Shown piece after piece: positions 22,624 to 64,000 of a stretch of DNA of 64,000 nucleotides. The notes under the pieces are model-generated. The model had not been told where the DNA came from. It made no database searches and worked only from the letters and a program-made list of their open reading frames with translations. Location of the stretch: positions 18,786,001 through 18,850,000 of the forward strand of contig CATNEN010000001.1 of NCBI GenBank assembly GCA_950097015.1, read 5' to 3'. Every line of letters begins with the position of its first letter. Positions within the stretch are counted from its first letter, which is position 1. The translations under genes and the position numbers were made by a program. The DNA is from Macrostomum hystrix. Its lineage: Eukaryota; Animalia; Platyhelminthes.

Positions 22624-28778
<6,155 letters not shown>

Positions 28779-32828: not shown

Positions 32829-35800
32829 TCAAGCATGAATCCAGGCCGCTCTCTGTTCCTCTATCGTCTCCATGGCAACAAGTCGTCCGAAGTCTGCTGC
32901 AGTCCGCCAGAGTCTGGCCCGTGCCCACAACTTCCGCTCCTCGTTCTCTGCACTGGAGTGAATGTCGCTGTCCCTGCCTCTTCGATTTGACACTCTCAGC
33001 AGCTTCTCTCTGACCCAGCGGATCTTCTCAAAGTCCTGCGTCTCCATGGCGACGCGTCTCTCGTCTCTGAGCATCTCCATCTGCCGCAAGTTGAACTCCA
33101 CATGTTCGCGGCGGTCGCTGTAATGGGCCAGTGTGAGCAGCTCCCCCAAGTCCGGGTCCTCTTGCAGCTCTGAGAGCCACGCATCGAAGTCGATTGCTGT
33201 GCAATTGCGGAGCAGCTCAGCTTGGAGACTCTAGCTCAGGCAGCGGAAGTTCACGTACAGGTGGGAGGAGCGAGGCTGTGACAGTCTGGCTGTGAGCAGA
33301 GTCTGCGTGAACTCGGGAAGGAATGCGAATCGAGGCGGAGTGTCTGTGGGGAGGCAGAACCTCCACGCCCAGTCCGAGTCTTGAGGCACTCTGATATCCG
33401 ACTGCACTATTTGAGTGTCACACGGCCCCCATCCGTTTTGAAGGGTGTGACTTTGCAGCTCCATCAGGAGTCTCTCAGCCTCCTCGGAGTCTCCGAACTT
33501 CCGATGCGCCATGGCAGTCATGCTCAGGGCAGTGCACTTGCACCACCGCCGCAGATGATCCAGCAGACTGAGTTGCCTCATCAAGGTGACTCTGTCACAT
33601 GACCCTGACTGCAGCTCGGCCATGCACTGCTGCACCACGCTGAACACATCAACAAAATGTCTTATCTTCTCATTCCGAATTTCCGAGACGTCAGGAAGCG
33701 TTTTCAGGGGGAGCAGAGTGAACGGATGAAAGTAGAAGTTCTCTGACTGCAGTGGTCTCACAAGTCTCCTCATCTGCTCAACCACTCCGCCGATGTCGCT
33801 TCTCAGCTCTCTCAGTCGGTCTCGAACCCTCGCCTTCGTGTTGTCGAAGTCGCCCCCTACTCCAGCGTTCTTGAAGTAGAGCGGAGCGTCGGACATGAAG
33901 AAGTGCGGCATGCACTCATCGGGTGAGCTGCTTGAGTCGATGAAGCTCAGCATCATGTCGAGAGACTCCTTCAGTCGTGAGATCAGATTCCGAGGCTGCC
34001 AAGCAGTTTTATCTGTTCTGCGATGCTTCTCTAGCATGAAGAAGAGCAGAGTCTTTGCATGGTAAGTCTTGAGTCCAGGTGTGTCCAAAGAGAGTGGCAA
34101 GTATCTCTTGAAAATGAACTTGATGAGCGTGAAGAGCTGACCTTGTACAGTGTTCAGCTGGCTCATTGTACTTTTCTCGTGGAAACTGAAGCTCACTCTG
34201 AGCTCGTTTGTCGAGTTCGGTCTGGTTGCCCTCACGAGATGCACTGGGTCAAGGTCATCGTCTTCTCTTCGTCTTATGAGTGACTTGATCCTCTCATCAC
34301 ACAATGAGCTGCAGCACCGGAGGGCATGGCAGGTGTCCTGAGCAGGTCGCACACCGCATGCGTCAGCTCTCACAGCAGGTTGGTTTCCTATGGAACGATT
34401 GTGGCCTGAGTCATTCAAATCGATAGATCGAAGATTGATTCATAAAATAGGGAATGTGGAGTTTATGCTGAACTGAAGCCTAGTTCAAAATGTAGCAATG
34501 ATAATTCTCTCTTAAAATTAATGTACAGGAAGCGCCAACATGGACGCGTTCTCACCCAATCCAACGGCCACCTGAGCATGGCCTTCCGTGACCAATAGCT
34601 TTGCCGTGACACCGTGACACTTGCAGCCGTCCTGCAGATGAAACTCGTTGCCTTCAACCAGCACAGTCCAGTCGATGTCGGAGTCTGTCGCTGTCCTGCC
34701 GTTCACTTGCACCAGACTGTTGGCCCAGCCCTCTGCGTAGCTGCCTGTCATCCACCTGTCATCGTGGGCGAGGACTCCAGCAACTTCCTCCAGCCATTCG
34801 GCCATTCTCTGCTGGCACTCCACTCTCTCTCTCGTGAATCCCGCCTCGTTGAGTAGTGCGTGCAGTTCCTCACTGAGCAGACCGTCTTCTGGTGTGACAT
34901 TTCTGAGGAGCGCGATTGGGTGGGATAACTGGTCTACTCACAGATGGAAGTCTGGGAGCATTCTTCGGCCTACACAGACCTGCAATCTGTCGTTATCGAG
35001 AATGTTAAACTGCGCTTCGGTCAATCAGAGTTTATGGTGCTCAAGGAACTTTTTGATTACCTAATAAAAACCGCAGGTATACGACAACTGGTACATAAAG
35101 TTAGCTGTGTAAAATAATACATACGAAATGAGTCGCGAATTATCGACTCGCAACCTGCTGTTGTGACCCTGAGGTGCCAGAATTTCTGAAAAGAACGACA
35201 GGATTGTCTTTTAAGTGCACCGAGACACACACACAAGAATCCACATATTCTACGAATTTTGTATATTGCGAGTTAGCATTGCTACTATGCATTAAATTAT
35301 GAGTTCTACTCGTAATTGCAGCATGTCTTGTGTTTTTTGTGTTTATTTCCCAACAAAAATGTGAGGAACGGGTATCCAAAAAGTATTATACTCCCTACTG
35401 CTCACTCACCTGACAGTCTGGGGCTTCAGCAGACGCAGCAGCTCCGTGTGTCCCAGCTGCTCCGCCACCCGCGCACACGTCAGACCCCGACAGTCCCGAT
35501 GACTCGCATCCGCTCCTTTGCCCATCAGAGTCTGAGCTGCTCGCACGTGACCCGCTTCACAAGCTCGCAACAGAGCTGTCCGACCCTGACTGTCTTCAGC
35601 TTGCACTGACGTCCCGAGATCCAACAGTTTCTTCATGAGAGCGTGATGACCTGCATCAGCTGCCAGCATGAGAGCAGTGGCTCCTGTGTCGTCTGGCAAA
35701 TCGACATGTTCTCTATTGAATCGTTCGTAATCGTTTGACTGCCTTTAAGCACCGATCATTCTCATACTTGTCGTCCAGTGTCTCCATTGAGAAGATTTCT

Positions 35801-57636: not shown

Positions 57637-59310
57637 CTTTGAAGGCTTATTGTTATTTGATCGCTAGACAATTAAAAACCTGTAAAGAAATGAAATACCG
57701 TGGTAAAAATCAAATCGAATATTAAGTTCTAAGTATTAGATTATTAGTGCTCTTACCGGTAGGTTTTTTGCTGCTTTCACTTTGAAACTAACTGATTTGT
57801 CAACTCAGTAGATAGGAAGATAGGAGCATATAGACTCCACAGCAGGACTGAGGCGAGCGGAGCGCCTCAAATAACATTTTCCTGTCATGTGCGAGTGCTT
57901 CTTTTTCACTGAGCAATTTGATTGGCCGCTGGCTATGCACTGCCCCATTCCTGTTGTCTACTTCTGTTAGTCTGGCTTCACGCGCTGGCCCTATGGATTT
58001 CTCAATTCTTTCTTACTATCTTCACCCTCGGTGGCGGGTTAATGTACATTGGGCCGCTGCTTCTGAATGTACATTCAACCCACCCTCCAAGGCCGAAGTG
58101 GCCGTCTGTCTCAGTTTTCCTTTCGTTCCTACCCTACCCTACCCTACTCTACTTCATTGAAACCGTCACATTTTTTGTTTATTGGGCGTGGTCCATGGCG
58201 GCCCGACTGAACATTTCTTAAGCCTACATAATCAACCAATTTGCCTTTGCGCATATTGAGAATTAAAATTGTGAACAGGCTGGCCCTATCATTACGAAAA
58301 TTTTATTTTCGTAAGCAATAAAACTAAAGTTTCTTTGGTTATCAAAAACCCTGTATATTCAGGGCGCTGTCTCAAATGTGTAAAAAAGTTAGGAATGCGC
58401 AATGTTAAGCAGGTATAATAAATCAATGAGCAATAAATGTGCCTCTAATTAATTTACAGCCCACACAATATAGTACGAGCGTAAATGCTATACTTTTGCT
58501 TTGTTTTACTTCACTCAATTTCGATGGTCTGCCTAATTGCATTGTTTGTCAGGATCAAAATTAATTTCGATGTCTCTTAAAATCGGGACAAAGTTGGCAG
58601 ATGCGAAACGCACGAATAAGCTATCTAAAACGAAAAAACGGGCACAGCACACCACTATTAATTAAAAGTAGAAATATACCAAAGTGGGGGGAATTCCACC
58701 AGACAATTAGTTTTGCTGTACCCGAACAGAGCAACGCAAGCACACGAAACTCAAGAACGTGCGCAACTTTTTGTTGCGCATCTTCTGAAACAAGAATCAA
58801 GTTGCCAGCCCTTCGGACTGTCAAGATGTTCATCGGTTCTGGCTAAAGGTCGGATTTTTTTCCATAAGAACTAGTGTATTTCATACACCCCAATACACAA
58901 AGTTGCACCATGCCTCAGTGCGGCCTTGCCAGGCCTTCGAACTTAATCAGCATGTCACCCGAATGTGCCTGCATCATCTCCGACTTTGGTAGTCACCAAC
59001 CTTCTTCTAGACGGAACTGCTGGACCTTCAACAATAAATAGTTGAGTTTAGGCCAATATCGAAGCTTTATCAGCGAAAGTAGAAAAATTCGCTCCAGGGA
59101 CTCCGTAGCCAGCTGGAGACACACTGCTGATGGTGCTGACGGCGTCGGGGGTGGTGACTGATTGGTTGACGGACTGGGCGAGGGTCCTGTGGTTGAGCTT
59201 CGTCTCATATTAAGGCTGGATCTGCCAAATTGGGGAAATCTGCACCAGGGTGTCCATATTCGGTTAGTACCACTTGTTGAAAATCCAGCAGCTCCGTCAG
59301 CTAGATAAAT

Positions 59311-62300
59311 TCTCTGTGGATCGTAAATGGGACCGGGCCGACCCGGTGCGTGAGTACCATCATACCCACGCGGCAAGTGACTCCCTCCACGAGGGGCCCC
59401 TGGACGGCACACCACCGTTGCCGACGAAATGTCACACCCTTCAGGGATACTGCGCAAAACGAGGAGATCGACCCAACGAAACCACCGATCAGGACGCGTC
59501 CGAGGAGCTGAATCTTGTGATGCGTCTCAGGGGCGGAGACGCCACGGCTGGTGAACCGAAAACGAACAGCCGCCCGAGAAGACAGCACAGAAGGGTTAAG
59601 AGACCCGGCCCAGAGCTCCTGGTCCTGCAGCTTAACTGTAATGGGCTGCAGGCCCGCCGTACGGAGCTGGCCGAGAGGCTCAGACAAACCCAACCTTGCG
59701 CTGCCCTCCTCCAGGAGACGAAATTGCGTCAAGGAGCCAACTTCATCCCGCCCCACGGCTACAGCGTCGCGGCCCGCAAGGATGGCGCACCAAAACCAGA
59801 ACATACCCCGGAGGTCACCGCCACCACTACTGACGACGACCGCCAGGACGGCGGAAGCCCACGACTCCAGAACACCCAGATGACGCAAGCAGCTCCAAAC
59901 GGCCCCCCCCGCCGGCGCGCCACCGCCAGACCGCGATGCCGGCTACGCTGGCCAAACGACAGGACGACCTGGTGCCAGGGTTGTCGCAGCGGCAGACAGG
60001 CCTGCATCAACCGGGACCAGCCATGGCCGGAACGCGAAGGGGACAAGGACAATCACAATCAGCAAACGGCCCCGGCAGCAACCACGGACAAGGGCCCGGA
60101 CACCGAATCGGAAGCCACCAGAACAGCCAACGCATTGCCACCACCGCAGATCGAACTCGCAACCGGCAACAGAGCTACTAGGGGACAAAACACTAAAAAA
60201 TCAAGGAAAAACACAGCGCCCCCGGGCCGCGGAGGCGTGCTAATACTGGTGCGCAACGATATCCCATTCATGGATCCACGAACAAGCAGCGATGGGCCGA
60301 TGGACTGGGCCACAGTCACCATCATTCCAAAGGGCAAAGGCAAGTTTAACATCACCTCCGTGTACGCACCACCAAACAGCGACCAGCGGCAACAAGACAA
60401 CTGGGAGCCCGACTGGGACCTCATCCCGGTCACCACGCGCGGTGTCATCGGCGGCGACTTCAACGGCCACGGTAGCTGGGACGAGCACCAACCGGACGAC
60501 GACAGAGGAGATTGCATCGAACAGTGGGCGCTCCGACGCAGCCTACACCTCTGCAACCTCCCGTCCGCCCACACGAGGACAAACCCGGCCACAGGAGGCA
60601 AGTCCAGTCCGGATCTAACTTGGTGCTCACCTAACCTCACCGCAGTCTGCCGTCCCAGCTGGCGGACAACCGAGTGTATCGGCAGCGACCACCTGCCCCT
60701 ACTCTACGAGCTGACTAAGACATCTGCCAGTGGAAAACGGAATCGCCAGACGCGCTGGTGTTTCAAGAAAGCCGACTGGAAGGCGTACAAACAATCGCTC
60801 GACAACCGAGAGGCTAAGCTCAGGCCGAGCAAACCCGAGTCAGGTTCCAGCGTGGACTTCGATCACCAAAGGCTCAGCGACAACATCCTGACTGCAGCCC
60901 TGGAGTGCATCCCCAGAGGAGCCCGCAGCACCCCCGGTAAGCCCTTCTGGACAGAAGCCTGCGACAAGGCCTGCAAGGAGAACGCGCAAGCCCGCAAACA
61001 AGCAGAAACAAGCAGGGAAAAAAGCGACCTAGATGCGTACCAAGCGACCCGCGAGAACGTCCGCAACACGATCCAGAGAGAGAAAGCCGCTTTCTGGAAA
61101 GAAAAGACAGCGTCGCTGAACATCAACTCTGACCTCTTCGCTATCATGCGGTCTCTGCGCGGCGACCCAGCACCTCCCCCACCGAACGCGGCGCTCAAGA
61201 TCCCGGCCGACCCGACCCGTGGCGGCTCGCCCAGAACCGCCACCAACGATAGAGAAAAGGCAGAAGCGTTCTGTAGTCTCTACGCCAGCATCTCACGGAT
61301 CCCACGGGACCACGACGACCGCTCCATCAACCACCAGGCCTATAGAGCTATGCAAGCACCCTGCTGTAACAACAACGATCGTAAGGGGCTTTGCTCAGCC
61401 TTCTCTGCAGCGGAGCTAAAGAACGTCCTGACCGGGCTTAAGTCCGGCAAGAGCCCCGGCGACGATCAGGTTACGAACGAGATGCTGAAGCACCTCGCAA
61501 GCCCCACGGAGAAGAGACTGCTCGATCTGGTGAACAAGTCGTGGCTGACCGGAAAATGCCCGCACCAATGGCGGCGCGCCACAATAATTCCTATACCGAA
61601 GCGCGGCAAGCCAGCGGAGGAACTCGGCAGTTACAGACCGGTCGCCCTCACCAGCTGTATCGCTAAGGTCGCGGAACGACTGGTCTACCACCGTCTCAGC
61701 TACTTCTTGGAGTCCAACGGCAAGATCAGTGGAGTGCAAGCCGGGTTCCGGAAGGGCAGATCATGCGAGGAGCAGATCGCCCGCATCTCACAACAAATCT
61801 TCGATGGCTTCGAAAGATCCCCAGCGATGCGATCTGTCCTTGGTCTTCTGGACTTTTCCCGCGCTTACGACAGGGTCTGGAAGAGAGCCCTCCTCCTGAA
61901 ACTTAAAGAGGTCGGCATCCCACCCTGTGTCCTCCGGTGGATCAACAGCTTTCTGGCGGATAGAAGGGCCAAGGTCCGAGTAGGCACCAGCAACAGCAAG
62001 GAACGCACCTTCCGCGAGGGGCTCCCACAAGGCAGCGTCCTGGCCCCGCTGCTATGGCTGGTTTACATCAATGACCTACCAGACACCATCCACGCCGCTT
62101 CACCGGACACGAGTGTGAGCCTTTACGCCGACGACAGCGCGATACTCGCTACCAAGGAAAAACTTCAAGAATGCAAGAACATCCTGCAACCGGCTCTGGA
62201 CGCCATCGCCGGGTGGTGTAAGAGATGGAAAGTCGAGCTCAGCACCGCGAAGTGCAGTTACAGCACCTTCACGTTATCCCCGGCCGAAAACAGAGGCAAG

Positions 62301-63939
62301 AAAAGACTCGACCTCAACATCAACGGAGACCCACTGCGGTTCGAGGCGAACCCGACCTTCCTAGGGGTCAAATTCGACGACCACCTCGGTTTCGGAGAGC
62401 ATGCCAAGGATGTCAGACGGAAAATGGCAGCTAGACGCCGACCGATCCAGATGCTCGCAGACAGACAAACAGGCGCCGACCAGAAAACACTGCGTGCAGC
62501 CTACATCGCAACCTGCCGCTCTATTGCGGACTACGGCAGTGCCATTTGGTTAACGAGCGCAGCACCAAGCAACCGGGCACTTGTGGAGAGGCAGCAGAAC
62601 GCGTGTGCACGCCTAATCACCGGCTGCGTGATGCCCTCTCGGACGGACAAACTGCTGGCCGTCGCCAACCTGCCGCCCCTCCACCACATCGCCGCGGAAA
62701 GAGCTAGCAACCTCCGCGAGAGGATGGCCAGACTACCGGCCGACATCCCAGCGCACCAAGCAGCAACCGCGAACGAGCGACCAAGACTCAAAAACCGGAC
62801 CTACGAAGCCGCAATGAAGAACCGGGCCAACGACGGCCAGCGCGGGGAACGCATCCCGGACGCGCTCTCGGATGCCAACCGCCCGTACCGCGCCTGCTGG
62901 CGCCGCATCGCGCAAGAGCTGGAATGCAGCACCACGCTTGAGGCCCACCCAAGAGCACCAACGGCAATCGGCCCAGCACCTTGGACCATCAGCAGAAGCC
63001 TAGAAGTCCGCTTCGACACATCGGCCGCCAAAGAAGCAACCCGACAAATGCCAGCAGAACTTCGCGCCGCCCTCGCCGAACCAACCGTGTCCCGTCTCAC
63101 GGAGCACGTCATCTGGACCGACGGCTCGGTACAGGACGGTTGCAGAAACGGCGGGGGAGCAGCAGTCGCACAATGGCTTCCACCAGAGGCAGCCCGCATG
63201 TCTGCGGCGGGCGCTCTATGCAGCAGCTTCACGGCCGAACTCACCGCTATCCGAGAGGGCCTCCGCCTCTGCAACACCGCGGCAGACAGACCCCCGGACA
63301 TCACCATCGCCACCGACAGCCTGAGCGCCATCACGACCCTGAGCGCCGGGCCACTTAGGCAGAGGGACTCAGTAGCAGCCGACTGCTGGCAGCTCATTCT
63401 GGACCTGATCGAGCTAGGCACCAAGATTGGCTTCTGCTGGGTTCCGGCCCACTGCGGTATTACCGGCAACGAGGCCGCCGATCAGGCGGCGGCCAGGGCG
63501 GCAAAACTAGACCAAAGTCAGGTCCCGATCCAGTTGGACGCCGCCAGAGCAGCCACCCGACGCTGCCGGCGCGCCCTGGATATCATAGCAGTCGGCCCTT
63601 TCTGGAGCCCGCCCCAGGGTCTGCCGCGGAAGCAACAGGTCCTGGTCAACCAACTTCGCGCGGGCGCCAGCATGGTCGATAGAAAGACCCGCTACCGTCT
63701 CGGTGTCGACGCGTCCCCGCTGTGTCCCGATTGCGGCGAGGTGGACAGTGTCGACCACGTCGTCCTCCACTGTCCAAGAGGCGACCGCCACCGAGCCCTA
63801 CGCGGAATCCCGGCCGAGAACTTGATGGAGAACCCGGCCGCGGTCGTCGAGCTCCTGCGCAGTATGGGGCGCCTCTAGCGCCCCCGCCCTTATCGGTACT
63901 CCGGATCGGGCGCGCCCTGGAAACGAAAGAAAGAAAGAA
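59311..63939 (+). mobile_element. Apparently full-length single-ORF non-LTR retrotransposon (I group, Ingi-like)
   Basis: TSD (A)GCTAGATAAAT at 59299-59310 and 63940-63951; (GAAA)n tail; no ORF1; GC-rich compared with the host flanks. Confidence 0.93.
59520..63878 (+). CDS. LINE polyprotein: APE endonuclease, reverse transcriptase, RNase H, CCHC zinc knuckle
   Basis: APE: LQLNCNG, LQET, GDFN, SPD, SDH. RT: YRPVAL, QAGFR, LDFSRAYD, GLPQGS, YADD, FLG. RNase H: WTDGS, AEL, TDS, WVPAHCGITGNEAAD. C-terminal CPDC...HVVLHC. First in-frame ATG at 59520; the frame is open from the element 5' end. Confidence 0.95.
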   Translation: MRLRGGDATAGEPKTNSRPRRQHRRVKRPGPELLVLQLNCNGLQARRTELAERLRQTQPCAALLQETKLRQGANFIPPHGYSVAARKDGAPKPEHTPEVTATTTDDDRQDGGSPRLQNTQMTQAAPNGPPRRRATARPRCRLRWPNDRTTWCQGCRSGRQACINRDQPWPEREGDKDNHNQQTAPAATTDKGPDTESEATRTANALPPPQIELATGNRATRGQNTKKSRKNTAPPGRGGVLILVRNDIPFMDPRTSSDGPMDWATVTIIPKGKGKFNITSVYAPPNSDQRQQDNWEPDWDLIPVTTRGVIGGDFNGHGSWDEHQPDDDRGDCIEQWALRRSLHLCNLPSAHTRTNPATGGKSSPDLTWCSPNLTAVCRPSWRTTECIGSDHLPLLYELTKTSASGKRNRQTRWCFKKADWKAYKQSLDNREAKLRPSKPESGSSVDFDHQRLSDNILTAALECIPRGARSTPGKPFWTEACDKACKENAQARKQAETSREKSDLDAYQATRENVRNTIQREKAAFWKEKTASLNINSDLFAIMRSLRGDPAPPPPNAALKIPADPTRGGSPRTATNDREKAEAFCSLYASISRIPRDHDDRSINHQAYRAMQAPCCNNNDRKGLCSAFSAAELKNVLTGLKSGKSPGDDQVTNEMLKHLASPTEKRLLDLVNKSWLTGKCPHQWRRATIIPIPKRGKPAEELGSYRPVALTSCIAKVAERLVYHRLSYFLESNGKISGVQAGFRKGRSCEEQIARISQQIFDGFERSPAMRSVLGLLDFSRAYDRVWKRALLLKLKEVGIPPCVLRWINSFLADRRAKVRVGTSNSKERTFREGLPQGSVLAPLLWLVYINDLPDTIHAASPDTSVSLYADDSAILATKEKLQECKNILQPALDAIAGWCKRWKVELSTAKCSYSTFTLSPAENRGKKRLDLNINGDPLRFEANPTFLGVKFDDHLGFGEHAKDVRRKMAARRRPIQMLADRQTGADQKTLRAAYIATCRSIADYGSAIWLTSAAPSNRALVERQQNACARLITGCVMPSRTDKLLAVANLPPLHHIAAERASNLRERMARLPADIPAHQAATANERPRLKNRTYEAAMKNRANDGQRGERIPDALSDANRPYRACWRRIAQELECSTTLEAHPRAPTAIGPAPWTISRSLEVRFDTSAAKEATRQMPAELRAALAEPTVSRLTEHVIWTDGSVQDGCRNGGGAAVAQWLPPEAARMSAAGALCSSFTAELTAIREGLRLCNTAADRPPDITIATDSLSAITTLSAGPLRQRDSVAADCWQLILDLIELGTKIGFCWVPAHCGITGNEAADQAAARAAKLDQSQVPIQLDAARAATRRCRRALDIIAVGPFWSPPQGLPRKQQVLVNQLRAGASMVDRKTRYRLGVDASPLCPDCGEVDSVDHVVLHCPRGDRHRALRGIPAENLMENPAAVVELLRSMGRL

Positions 63940-64000
63940 AGCTAGATAAATGTCGGTGACCACCAAAGTCGGAGATGATGCAGCCACATTCGGGTGACAT

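Follow-up and report, generated by a model that had tools for sequence, protein, structure and literature searches.

A ubiquitin-tail motif in the 2A position of a Macrostomum LINE, a candidate cleavage site for host deubiquitinases

In this study, we analysed a 64-kb stretch of the Macrostomum hystrix genome (64,000 nucleotides, referred to as the window). The forward strand of the window carries a full-length, 4,629-bp, Ingi-like LINE of the APE type at 59311-63939, which ends in (GAAA)n and has no second copy in the window. The LINE is flanked by two identical 12-mers, at 59299-59310 on the 5' side and at 63940-63951 on the 3' side, which form its target site duplication. A single open frame (59268-63878, +) starts before the 5' end of the LINE and carries three Pfam domains. 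These are an APE endonuclease at 59616-60719 (PF03372 and PF14529; the start is approximate), a reverse transcriptase (RT) at 61593-62303 (aa 776-1012 of the open frame; PF00078, E=7.8e-34), and an RNase H at 63105-63503 (aa 1280-1412; PF00075, E=6.9e-13). A C-terminal CCHC zinc knuckle was found at 63723-63773 by pattern match. APE, RT, and RNase H were the only Pfam matches in the ORF at E<=1, and no OTU, USP, Ulp, or papain-like protease domain was present. The Macrostomum lignano protein P0065 matched part of the ORF at 89%. Target site duplications of about 12 bp are typical of Ingi, and the 12 bp found here are the length expected for the Ingi/L1Tc clade. The LINE also shares with this clade one ORF containing APE, RT, and RNase H, and the lack of an ORF1. 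The LINE is labelled "Ingi-like" only, as none of the searches gave a named Ingi reference. The N-terminal 2A-like sequence of the Ingi/L1Tc clade was absent from the LINE, and no NPGP occurred in any frame of the window.

Contigs of the LINE family from runs X1 and X4 both begin at 59329, and this position is probably the 5' end shared by the family. The 18 nt between the target duplication and this shared end (59311-59328, +) were possibly untemplated or captured at insertion. The insertion target (flank 59200-59298) is a multi-copy repeat over which many variant contigs lie, and seven contigs of run X1 run on into empty-site sequence at 59298. The open frame of this flank had no Pfam match. 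The APE domain is interrupted by an insertion of about 150 aa (59784-60233, +) with a conserved C-x(8-12)-WC-x2-C-x(5-7)-C pattern near 59935-60000. This Cys motif was found in 12 collected proteins; among the 10 from outside Macrostomum, four had a 2A and six were truncated or without a 2A. No Pfam family matched the insertion, which may be a lineage-typical zinc-binding module. In the M. lignano gene model P0133, an extra Cys/His-rich, PHD-like stretch was seen by eye in the same insertion.

Ahead of the endonuclease and in frame with it, the LINE encodes LNLVMRLRGG (59508-59537, +), followed by Asp (DATAG). Eight of the ten residues are those of the ubiquitin tail, as taken from protein P0150. 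When the residues of the 101-aa leader were shuffled, a score of 8/10 was reached in 0/50,000 trials and 7/10 in 5/50,000. A six-frame scan of the window against the ubiquitin tail gave one site at 8, none at 7, and ten at 6. The RLRGG core by itself was weak, with two further sites in the six frames of the window and 129 occurrences in 200,000 shuffles. The motif, predicted to be helical by a structure model, is followed by an Arg-rich linker (59538-59615, +) that includes KRPGP at 59598-59612. Similarity of the leader to ubiquitin was limited to the 10 motif residues by BLASTP, the leader had no Pfam match, and its model was unstructured (mean pLDDT 55, from a two-sequence alignment). A preliminary description of this DNA had reported the motif ahead of the APE in one open frame, RVKRPGP just before the APE, and a leader without a ubiquitin fold, and our results agree with it on all three points. 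The motif is real.

The motif was also found in a second family, represented by the M. lignano gene models P0123 and P0133. As in the window element, the motif is followed by Asp; it reads LHRVLRLRGG, matching the ubiquitin tail at 9/10 positions. The distance from the motif to the APE pattern was 28 residues in both the window element and P0123/P0133. These gene models are spliced and fused to a host exon, and their open leader is partly an ascertainment effect. Between the two families, identity was 7/10 in the motif, 6/26 (23%) in the linker, and 22/65 in the leader (Fisher tests: motif versus linker, p=0.018; motif versus leader, p=0.039). Identity in the APE halves was 42/56 and 97/162, and it was 75/276 downstream, where the segment overruns the end of P0133. 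The expectation that the motif is conserved while its flanks drift was thus borne out. Three motif positions differ between the families. Because at each of them one family has the ubiquitin residue, the comparison points to an ancestor of both families with a near-exact ubiquitin tail. The known motif carriers are these two Macrostomum families only, the window element and P0123/P0133.

Two other proposals of the preliminary description were rejected on the same comparison. KRPGP had been proposed as a decayed 2A, but it is not conserved (HRSGS in P0123/P0133) and lacks the GD(V/I)ExNPGP core; the motif itself (LRAG-D to LRGG-D) would be the better 2A relic. A start at the Met of MRLRGG was discarded as a family feature, the residue being Leu in the second family.

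Two variant copies, A and B, were obtained from contigs of run X1. Over 59430-59640, runs X5 and X6 gave no contigs and run X7 gave two short pieces only. Copy A has 85 differences over about 590 nt, and its contig is about 86% identical. Its motif is changed silently at Leu81, Leu83, and Arg86, and the last Gly is replaced by Arg. Upstream of the motif it has a 9-nt in-frame insertion, and many replacements occur in the flanks. Of the 27 differences between 59430 and 59629, 24 were examined. Among the differences listed for copy A (40 of 101), the APE changes include at least 18 that are silent and at least 7 that are replacing. The depth of copy A was 91.9, compared to 95.2 for the contig across the 5' junction of the window insertion, hinting at a single copy, although depth is no copy number. 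In copy B, the codons of Asn82 and Gly90 carry silent changes, and the leader frame is broken by a deletion of 17 nt at 59473, upstream of the motif. When the listed changes of both copies were pooled, 5/6 were silent in the motif and 5/17 in the flanks (p=0.052). Since the motif changes were mostly silent compared to those of the flanks, the motif appears to be under protein-level constraint. The di-Gly of the LRGG junction, present in the window element and P0123/P0133, was lost in copy A and is not inviolable among the copies seen. The sequence evidence that a ubiquitin-tail mimic has been kept by selection is good, but it comes from two families.

It has been reported that several single-ORF APE LINEs, of the L1Tc/Ingi clade and others, carry a 2A at the N-terminus (Odon et al. 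2013, PMC3708506; Luke et al. 2013, PMC3894237). The 2A core is GD(V/I)ExNPGP; LINE 2As often decay, and many are weak (PMC3708506). We collected 207 proteins, of which 21 were left out as duplicate or cluster members or polyubiquitins. Among the other 186, the APE start could not be recognised in 71 and was preceded by fewer than 35 residues in 29, leaving 86 with a readable leader (at least 35 residues before the APE). A 2A was present in 32 of these, RLRGG in one (P0133), neither in 53, and both in none; many of the 53 are Met-started calls that may be truncated, a bias warned of in PMC3708506. The suggested mutual exclusion of motif and 2A therefore held in all 86 readable leaders, and the suggested placement of the motif in the 2A slot was also confirmed. 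In P0155, P0156, and P0160, a 2A is followed by a basic linker and then by the APE; ..IRLRAG-D is an example of their front halves. In seven short-linker relatives, 28-48 residues separate the 2A Gly from the APE. The Asp after the di-Gly corresponds to the Asp of GD(V/I)ExNPGP (PMC3708506), and only this G-D of the ribosome-skip core remains in the LINE.

We then compared the 2A front halves with the ubiquitin tail, using the 25 of 28 2A rows that had all ten preceding residues. These 25 scored 1-4/10, and none had Gly at P2. Column-wise sampling of the front halves gave 8/10 in 10/2,000,000 draws and 9/10 in none. Because the sampled columns reached such scores so rarely or never, drift from a 2A by itself does not explain the ubiquitin match in this analysis. 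The motif is likely a 2A replacement, since relatives carry a 2A in that slot and their front halves score so low. It may be argued instead that the motif is what survives of the front half of an ancestral 2A (..LRAG-D), kept for pausing in the ribosome tunnel or as a short helix, with a ubiquitin likeness that is partly coincidence. Such a remnant would share the slot and the G-D with GD(V/I)ExNPGP and would fit the predicted helix and the frequent decay of LINE 2As (PMC3708506), as well as the tolerated Gly-to-Arg copy. However, the front-half scores and the sampling speak against it, and the extra matches (Leu, His, Val, Arg, and Gly) are specifically those of ubiquitin. We consider this explanation unlikely.

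A tree was constructed using IQ-TREE with 30 chosen sequences and 367 columns, from 86 of 119 aligned sequences. The Macrostomum pair had a support of 100 and was placed amid 2A-bearing elements. Its sister pair, P0121/P0122 (support 98), showed neither a 2A nor a ubiquitin-tail signal; an LTGG in the leader of P0121 was treated as chance. The node to the clade with the 2A-bearers P0002 and P0167 had a support of 71, and the node with many further 2A-bearers had a support of 98. An ancestral 2A is thus likely for the Macrostomum lineage but is not shown at the immediate node.

The predicted in-frame leader (59331-59507, +) contains no AUG and overlaps a putative HDV-like ribozyme core at 59377-59435 (+). 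The core was identified by a descriptor search and comprises P2, P3, L3, the P1.1 GG, a P4 hairpin, and J4/2; for P1, no 5' strand was found. The descriptor also matched 31/2000 shuffles, and with a stricter descriptor 59377-59435 was the sole match on both strands of the window. The back-translated leader of P0133 was compatible with this core at the corresponding position, with P2/P3 pairs that are changed but still pair (93/3000 shuffles). An Rfam search of 59100-59800 gave three chance-level matches and no ribozyme family. Since the leader of the second family allows the same core with P2/P3 still able to pair, the leader residues common to both families probably reflect RNA conservation. 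The leader frame is the only stop-free frame of the three, and 3451/20000 shuffles (17%) were also open. The variant copies differ in the leader by the insertion in one and the deletion in the other, as given above. An out-of-frame AUG opens a 41-codon upstream ORF at 59429-59554 (+); this short frame overlaps the motif and might reduce translation of the main ORF.

L1Tc/Ingi elements have an HDV-like 5' ribozyme, and in L1Tc the sequence downstream of it acts as an attenuator (PMC3185411; PMC4035085). The constraint on the motif might therefore lie in the RNA, with motif codons pairing with the ribozyme core as an attenuator or switch. Positions 59528-59534, inside the motif, are exactly complementary to 59396-59402 of the core, and the two segments are paired in the minimum-energy and centroid folds. 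Among the changes listed for the two variant copies, none falls at 59526-59534, while 59535 is changed. However, a 7-bp complement was found in 768/20,000 shuffles (about 4%), and the fold was no more stable than shuffles (z=-0.81). The silent changes at Leu81, Asn82, Leu83, and Arg86 indicate constraint at the protein level, and a pairing that spans only about two codons cannot account for a 9/10 match. An RNA constraint as the reason for the motif is therefore very unlikely.

The first in-frame ATG after the element start at 59311 is that of the Met inside the motif (ATG 59520), and the near-cognate codons CTG at 59508 and GTG at 59517 are also in frame. Translation may thus start at the motif, at the ATG or at the CTG or GTG just before it. 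The upstream region would then be a 5' UTR, and the motif would serve as a short peptide or degron at the N-terminus. This agrees with the largely ribozyme content of the upstream region and with the frameshifted copy, which keeps a motif with silent changes only. It is at odds with the Leu that replaces Met in the second family and with the residues before the Met, which are conserved in that family and show silent changes only in the variant copies. Trimming by a deubiquitinase (DUB) would still be compatible with a start at Leu81. We regard a start at the motif as highly improbable as the explanation of the motif.

The best explanation, to which we give slightly less than an even chance, is that the ubiquitin tail in the 2A slot is kept as a cut site for host DUBs, which would cleave after LRGG and free the endonuclease-RT-RNase H from a short leader. 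The RNA would begin with the HDV-like ribozyme, and translation would start at the motif or upstream of it, from a codon other than AUG. The front half of an ancestral 2A (..LRAG-D) may have been remodelled into, or overwritten by, the ubiquitin tail, and the NPGP half lost. A host USP or UCH enzyme would then cut between the di-Gly and Asp. An N-terminal Asp is an arginylation-type N-degron. The product, beginning with Asp, would be kept scarce, as has been proposed for 2A, to which a role in the control (down-regulation) of the LINE enzyme level has been ascribed (PMC3894237). It has also been reported that UCH-L3 accepts Ala at P2 at 47% in tetrapeptides (PMC7477763). Because UCH-L3 tolerates Ala at P2, LRAG may be one step from a DUB site, with a short path to LRGG.

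Several observations are unfavorable to DUB cleavage. The main difficulty is biochemical: DUBs depend on an exosite contact with the body of ubiquitin, and tail-only peptides are very poor substrates for them (PMC7477763). SDE2, the natural precedent, has a ubiquitin-like fold (PMC5131917). No ubiquitin fold was detected upstream of the motif by BLASTP, Pfam, or the weak structure model. Copy A carries Arg in place of the last Gly while its other motif changes are silent, and the di-Gly would not be essential if the lineage of copy A was mobile. The deletion in copy B breaks the leader frame, there is no in-frame AUG before the motif, a frame of the leader's length is open in 17% of shuffles, and the motif DNA can pair with the ribozyme core. 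Further points on this side are that only two families carry the motif, that the nearest sisters, P0121/P0122, are without either signal, and that the node to the nearest 2A-bearers has a support of only 71. A slow or partial DUB cut could still be regulatory, many LINE 2As being weak (PMC3708506). The full proposal is that a LINE lineage has swapped 2A skipping for a fold-less ubiquitin-tail site, so that release of the enzyme falls to host DUBs and no longer to the ribosome, and the Asp N-degron that they expose determines how long the enzyme lasts. We hold this somewhat more tentatively than the cut site itself.

Coronavirus polyproteins are cut at LxGG by PLpro, their own papain-like DUB/protease. 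The LxGG junction is alike in the LINE, but the LINE encodes no protease and a cut would need an enzyme in trans. In pestiviruses, ubiquitin is inserted before NS3, and a mobile RNA thereby exploits host DUBs. These insertions are whole ubiquitin monomers, whereas the LINE has a ten-residue tail. Ubiquitin-fusion precursors (polyubiquitin and ubiquitin-eS31) and SDE2 (PMC5131917) have a similar LRGG-type di-Gly junction before a functional protein. In contrast to these, no ubiquitin fold precedes the tail in the LINE, which mimics ten residues only. The motif and basic linker together showed a weak likeness to the ubiquitin-eS31 junction (E=0.23-0.5), which was not significant, and in P0155, P0156, and P0160 a basic linker likewise comes after the 2A. 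The LINE resembles L1Tc/Ingi and other 2A LINEs in its single ORF of APE, RT, and RNase H with a signal near the N-terminus before the APE (PMC3708506; PMC3894237), and L1Tc in the predicted HDV-like fold at its 5' end (PMC3185411; PMC4035085). It differs from the 2A LINEs in having no D(V/I)ExNPGP, and its ubiquitin tail would act post-translationally through a host protease and not by ribosome skipping.

All the conservation evidence would fit equally well if the motif were a true ubiquitin-tail mimic with another use, either docking on ubiquitin-binding proteins or cleavage by a non-DUB Gly-Gly protease of the Ulp/adenain type, from the host or a co-resident element. Ulp/adenain-type proteases have Gly-Gly specificity, and a ubiquitin fold would not be needed for either use. 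On the other hand, the LINE encodes no protease domain, and tail-binding domains mostly need a free C-terminal Gly, which counts against docking. Such a use is quite unlikely in our judgement, and the DUB cut site remains the preferred explanation.

Searches for further carriers revealed no third family. Profile searches with the two-family alignment gave 3 matches and 60 matches (four of them polyubiquitins), with no further RLRGG family among them. In metagenomes, covering half of the collection, 80 loci were kept of 533 relatives, most of them without a 5' end; an RLRGG-type motif was found in 0 of these in any frame and a 2A in 2. Viral contigs gave 19 pattern matches and 0 relatives. Prokaryote genomes gave 10 loci, which are probably eukaryotic contaminants; the four inspected had no motif before the APE. 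The ESM Atlas gave endonuclease clusters only. No description of a ubiquitin-tail motif in a LINE was found in the openly accessible literature, to which the search was limited.

For the 2A of single-ORF LINEs, a role in controlling the enzyme level has been put forward (PMC3894237). A lineage with a ubiquitin tail in place of the 2A suggests that what has to be conserved is a cut, or a new N-terminus, ahead of the endonuclease, irrespective of the chemistry used. If the DUB explanation is true, retrotransposons tap the ubiquitin system of their host while encoding neither ubiquitin nor a protease. It would also speak against the rule that a folded ubiquitin body is required by DUBs, as a natural case in which a ten-residue tail suffices, and would connect 2A and di-Gly sites directly in evolution. 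If no cut occurs, what is left is a short motif that is conserved in a single lineage of flatworm LINEs.

Two other features were observed on the reverse strand of the window. Long uninterrupted frames at 24831-27407 (-) and 23475-24107 (-) encode a kinase with a CNH domain, presumably of the MAP4K/Misshapen type. This gene seems to have few introns, and a tandem repeat interrupts it near 24000-24900. A 402-codon open frame at 33234-34439 (-) has a Mab-21 C-terminal domain (E=6e-7) and is a possible cGAS-like receptor gene.
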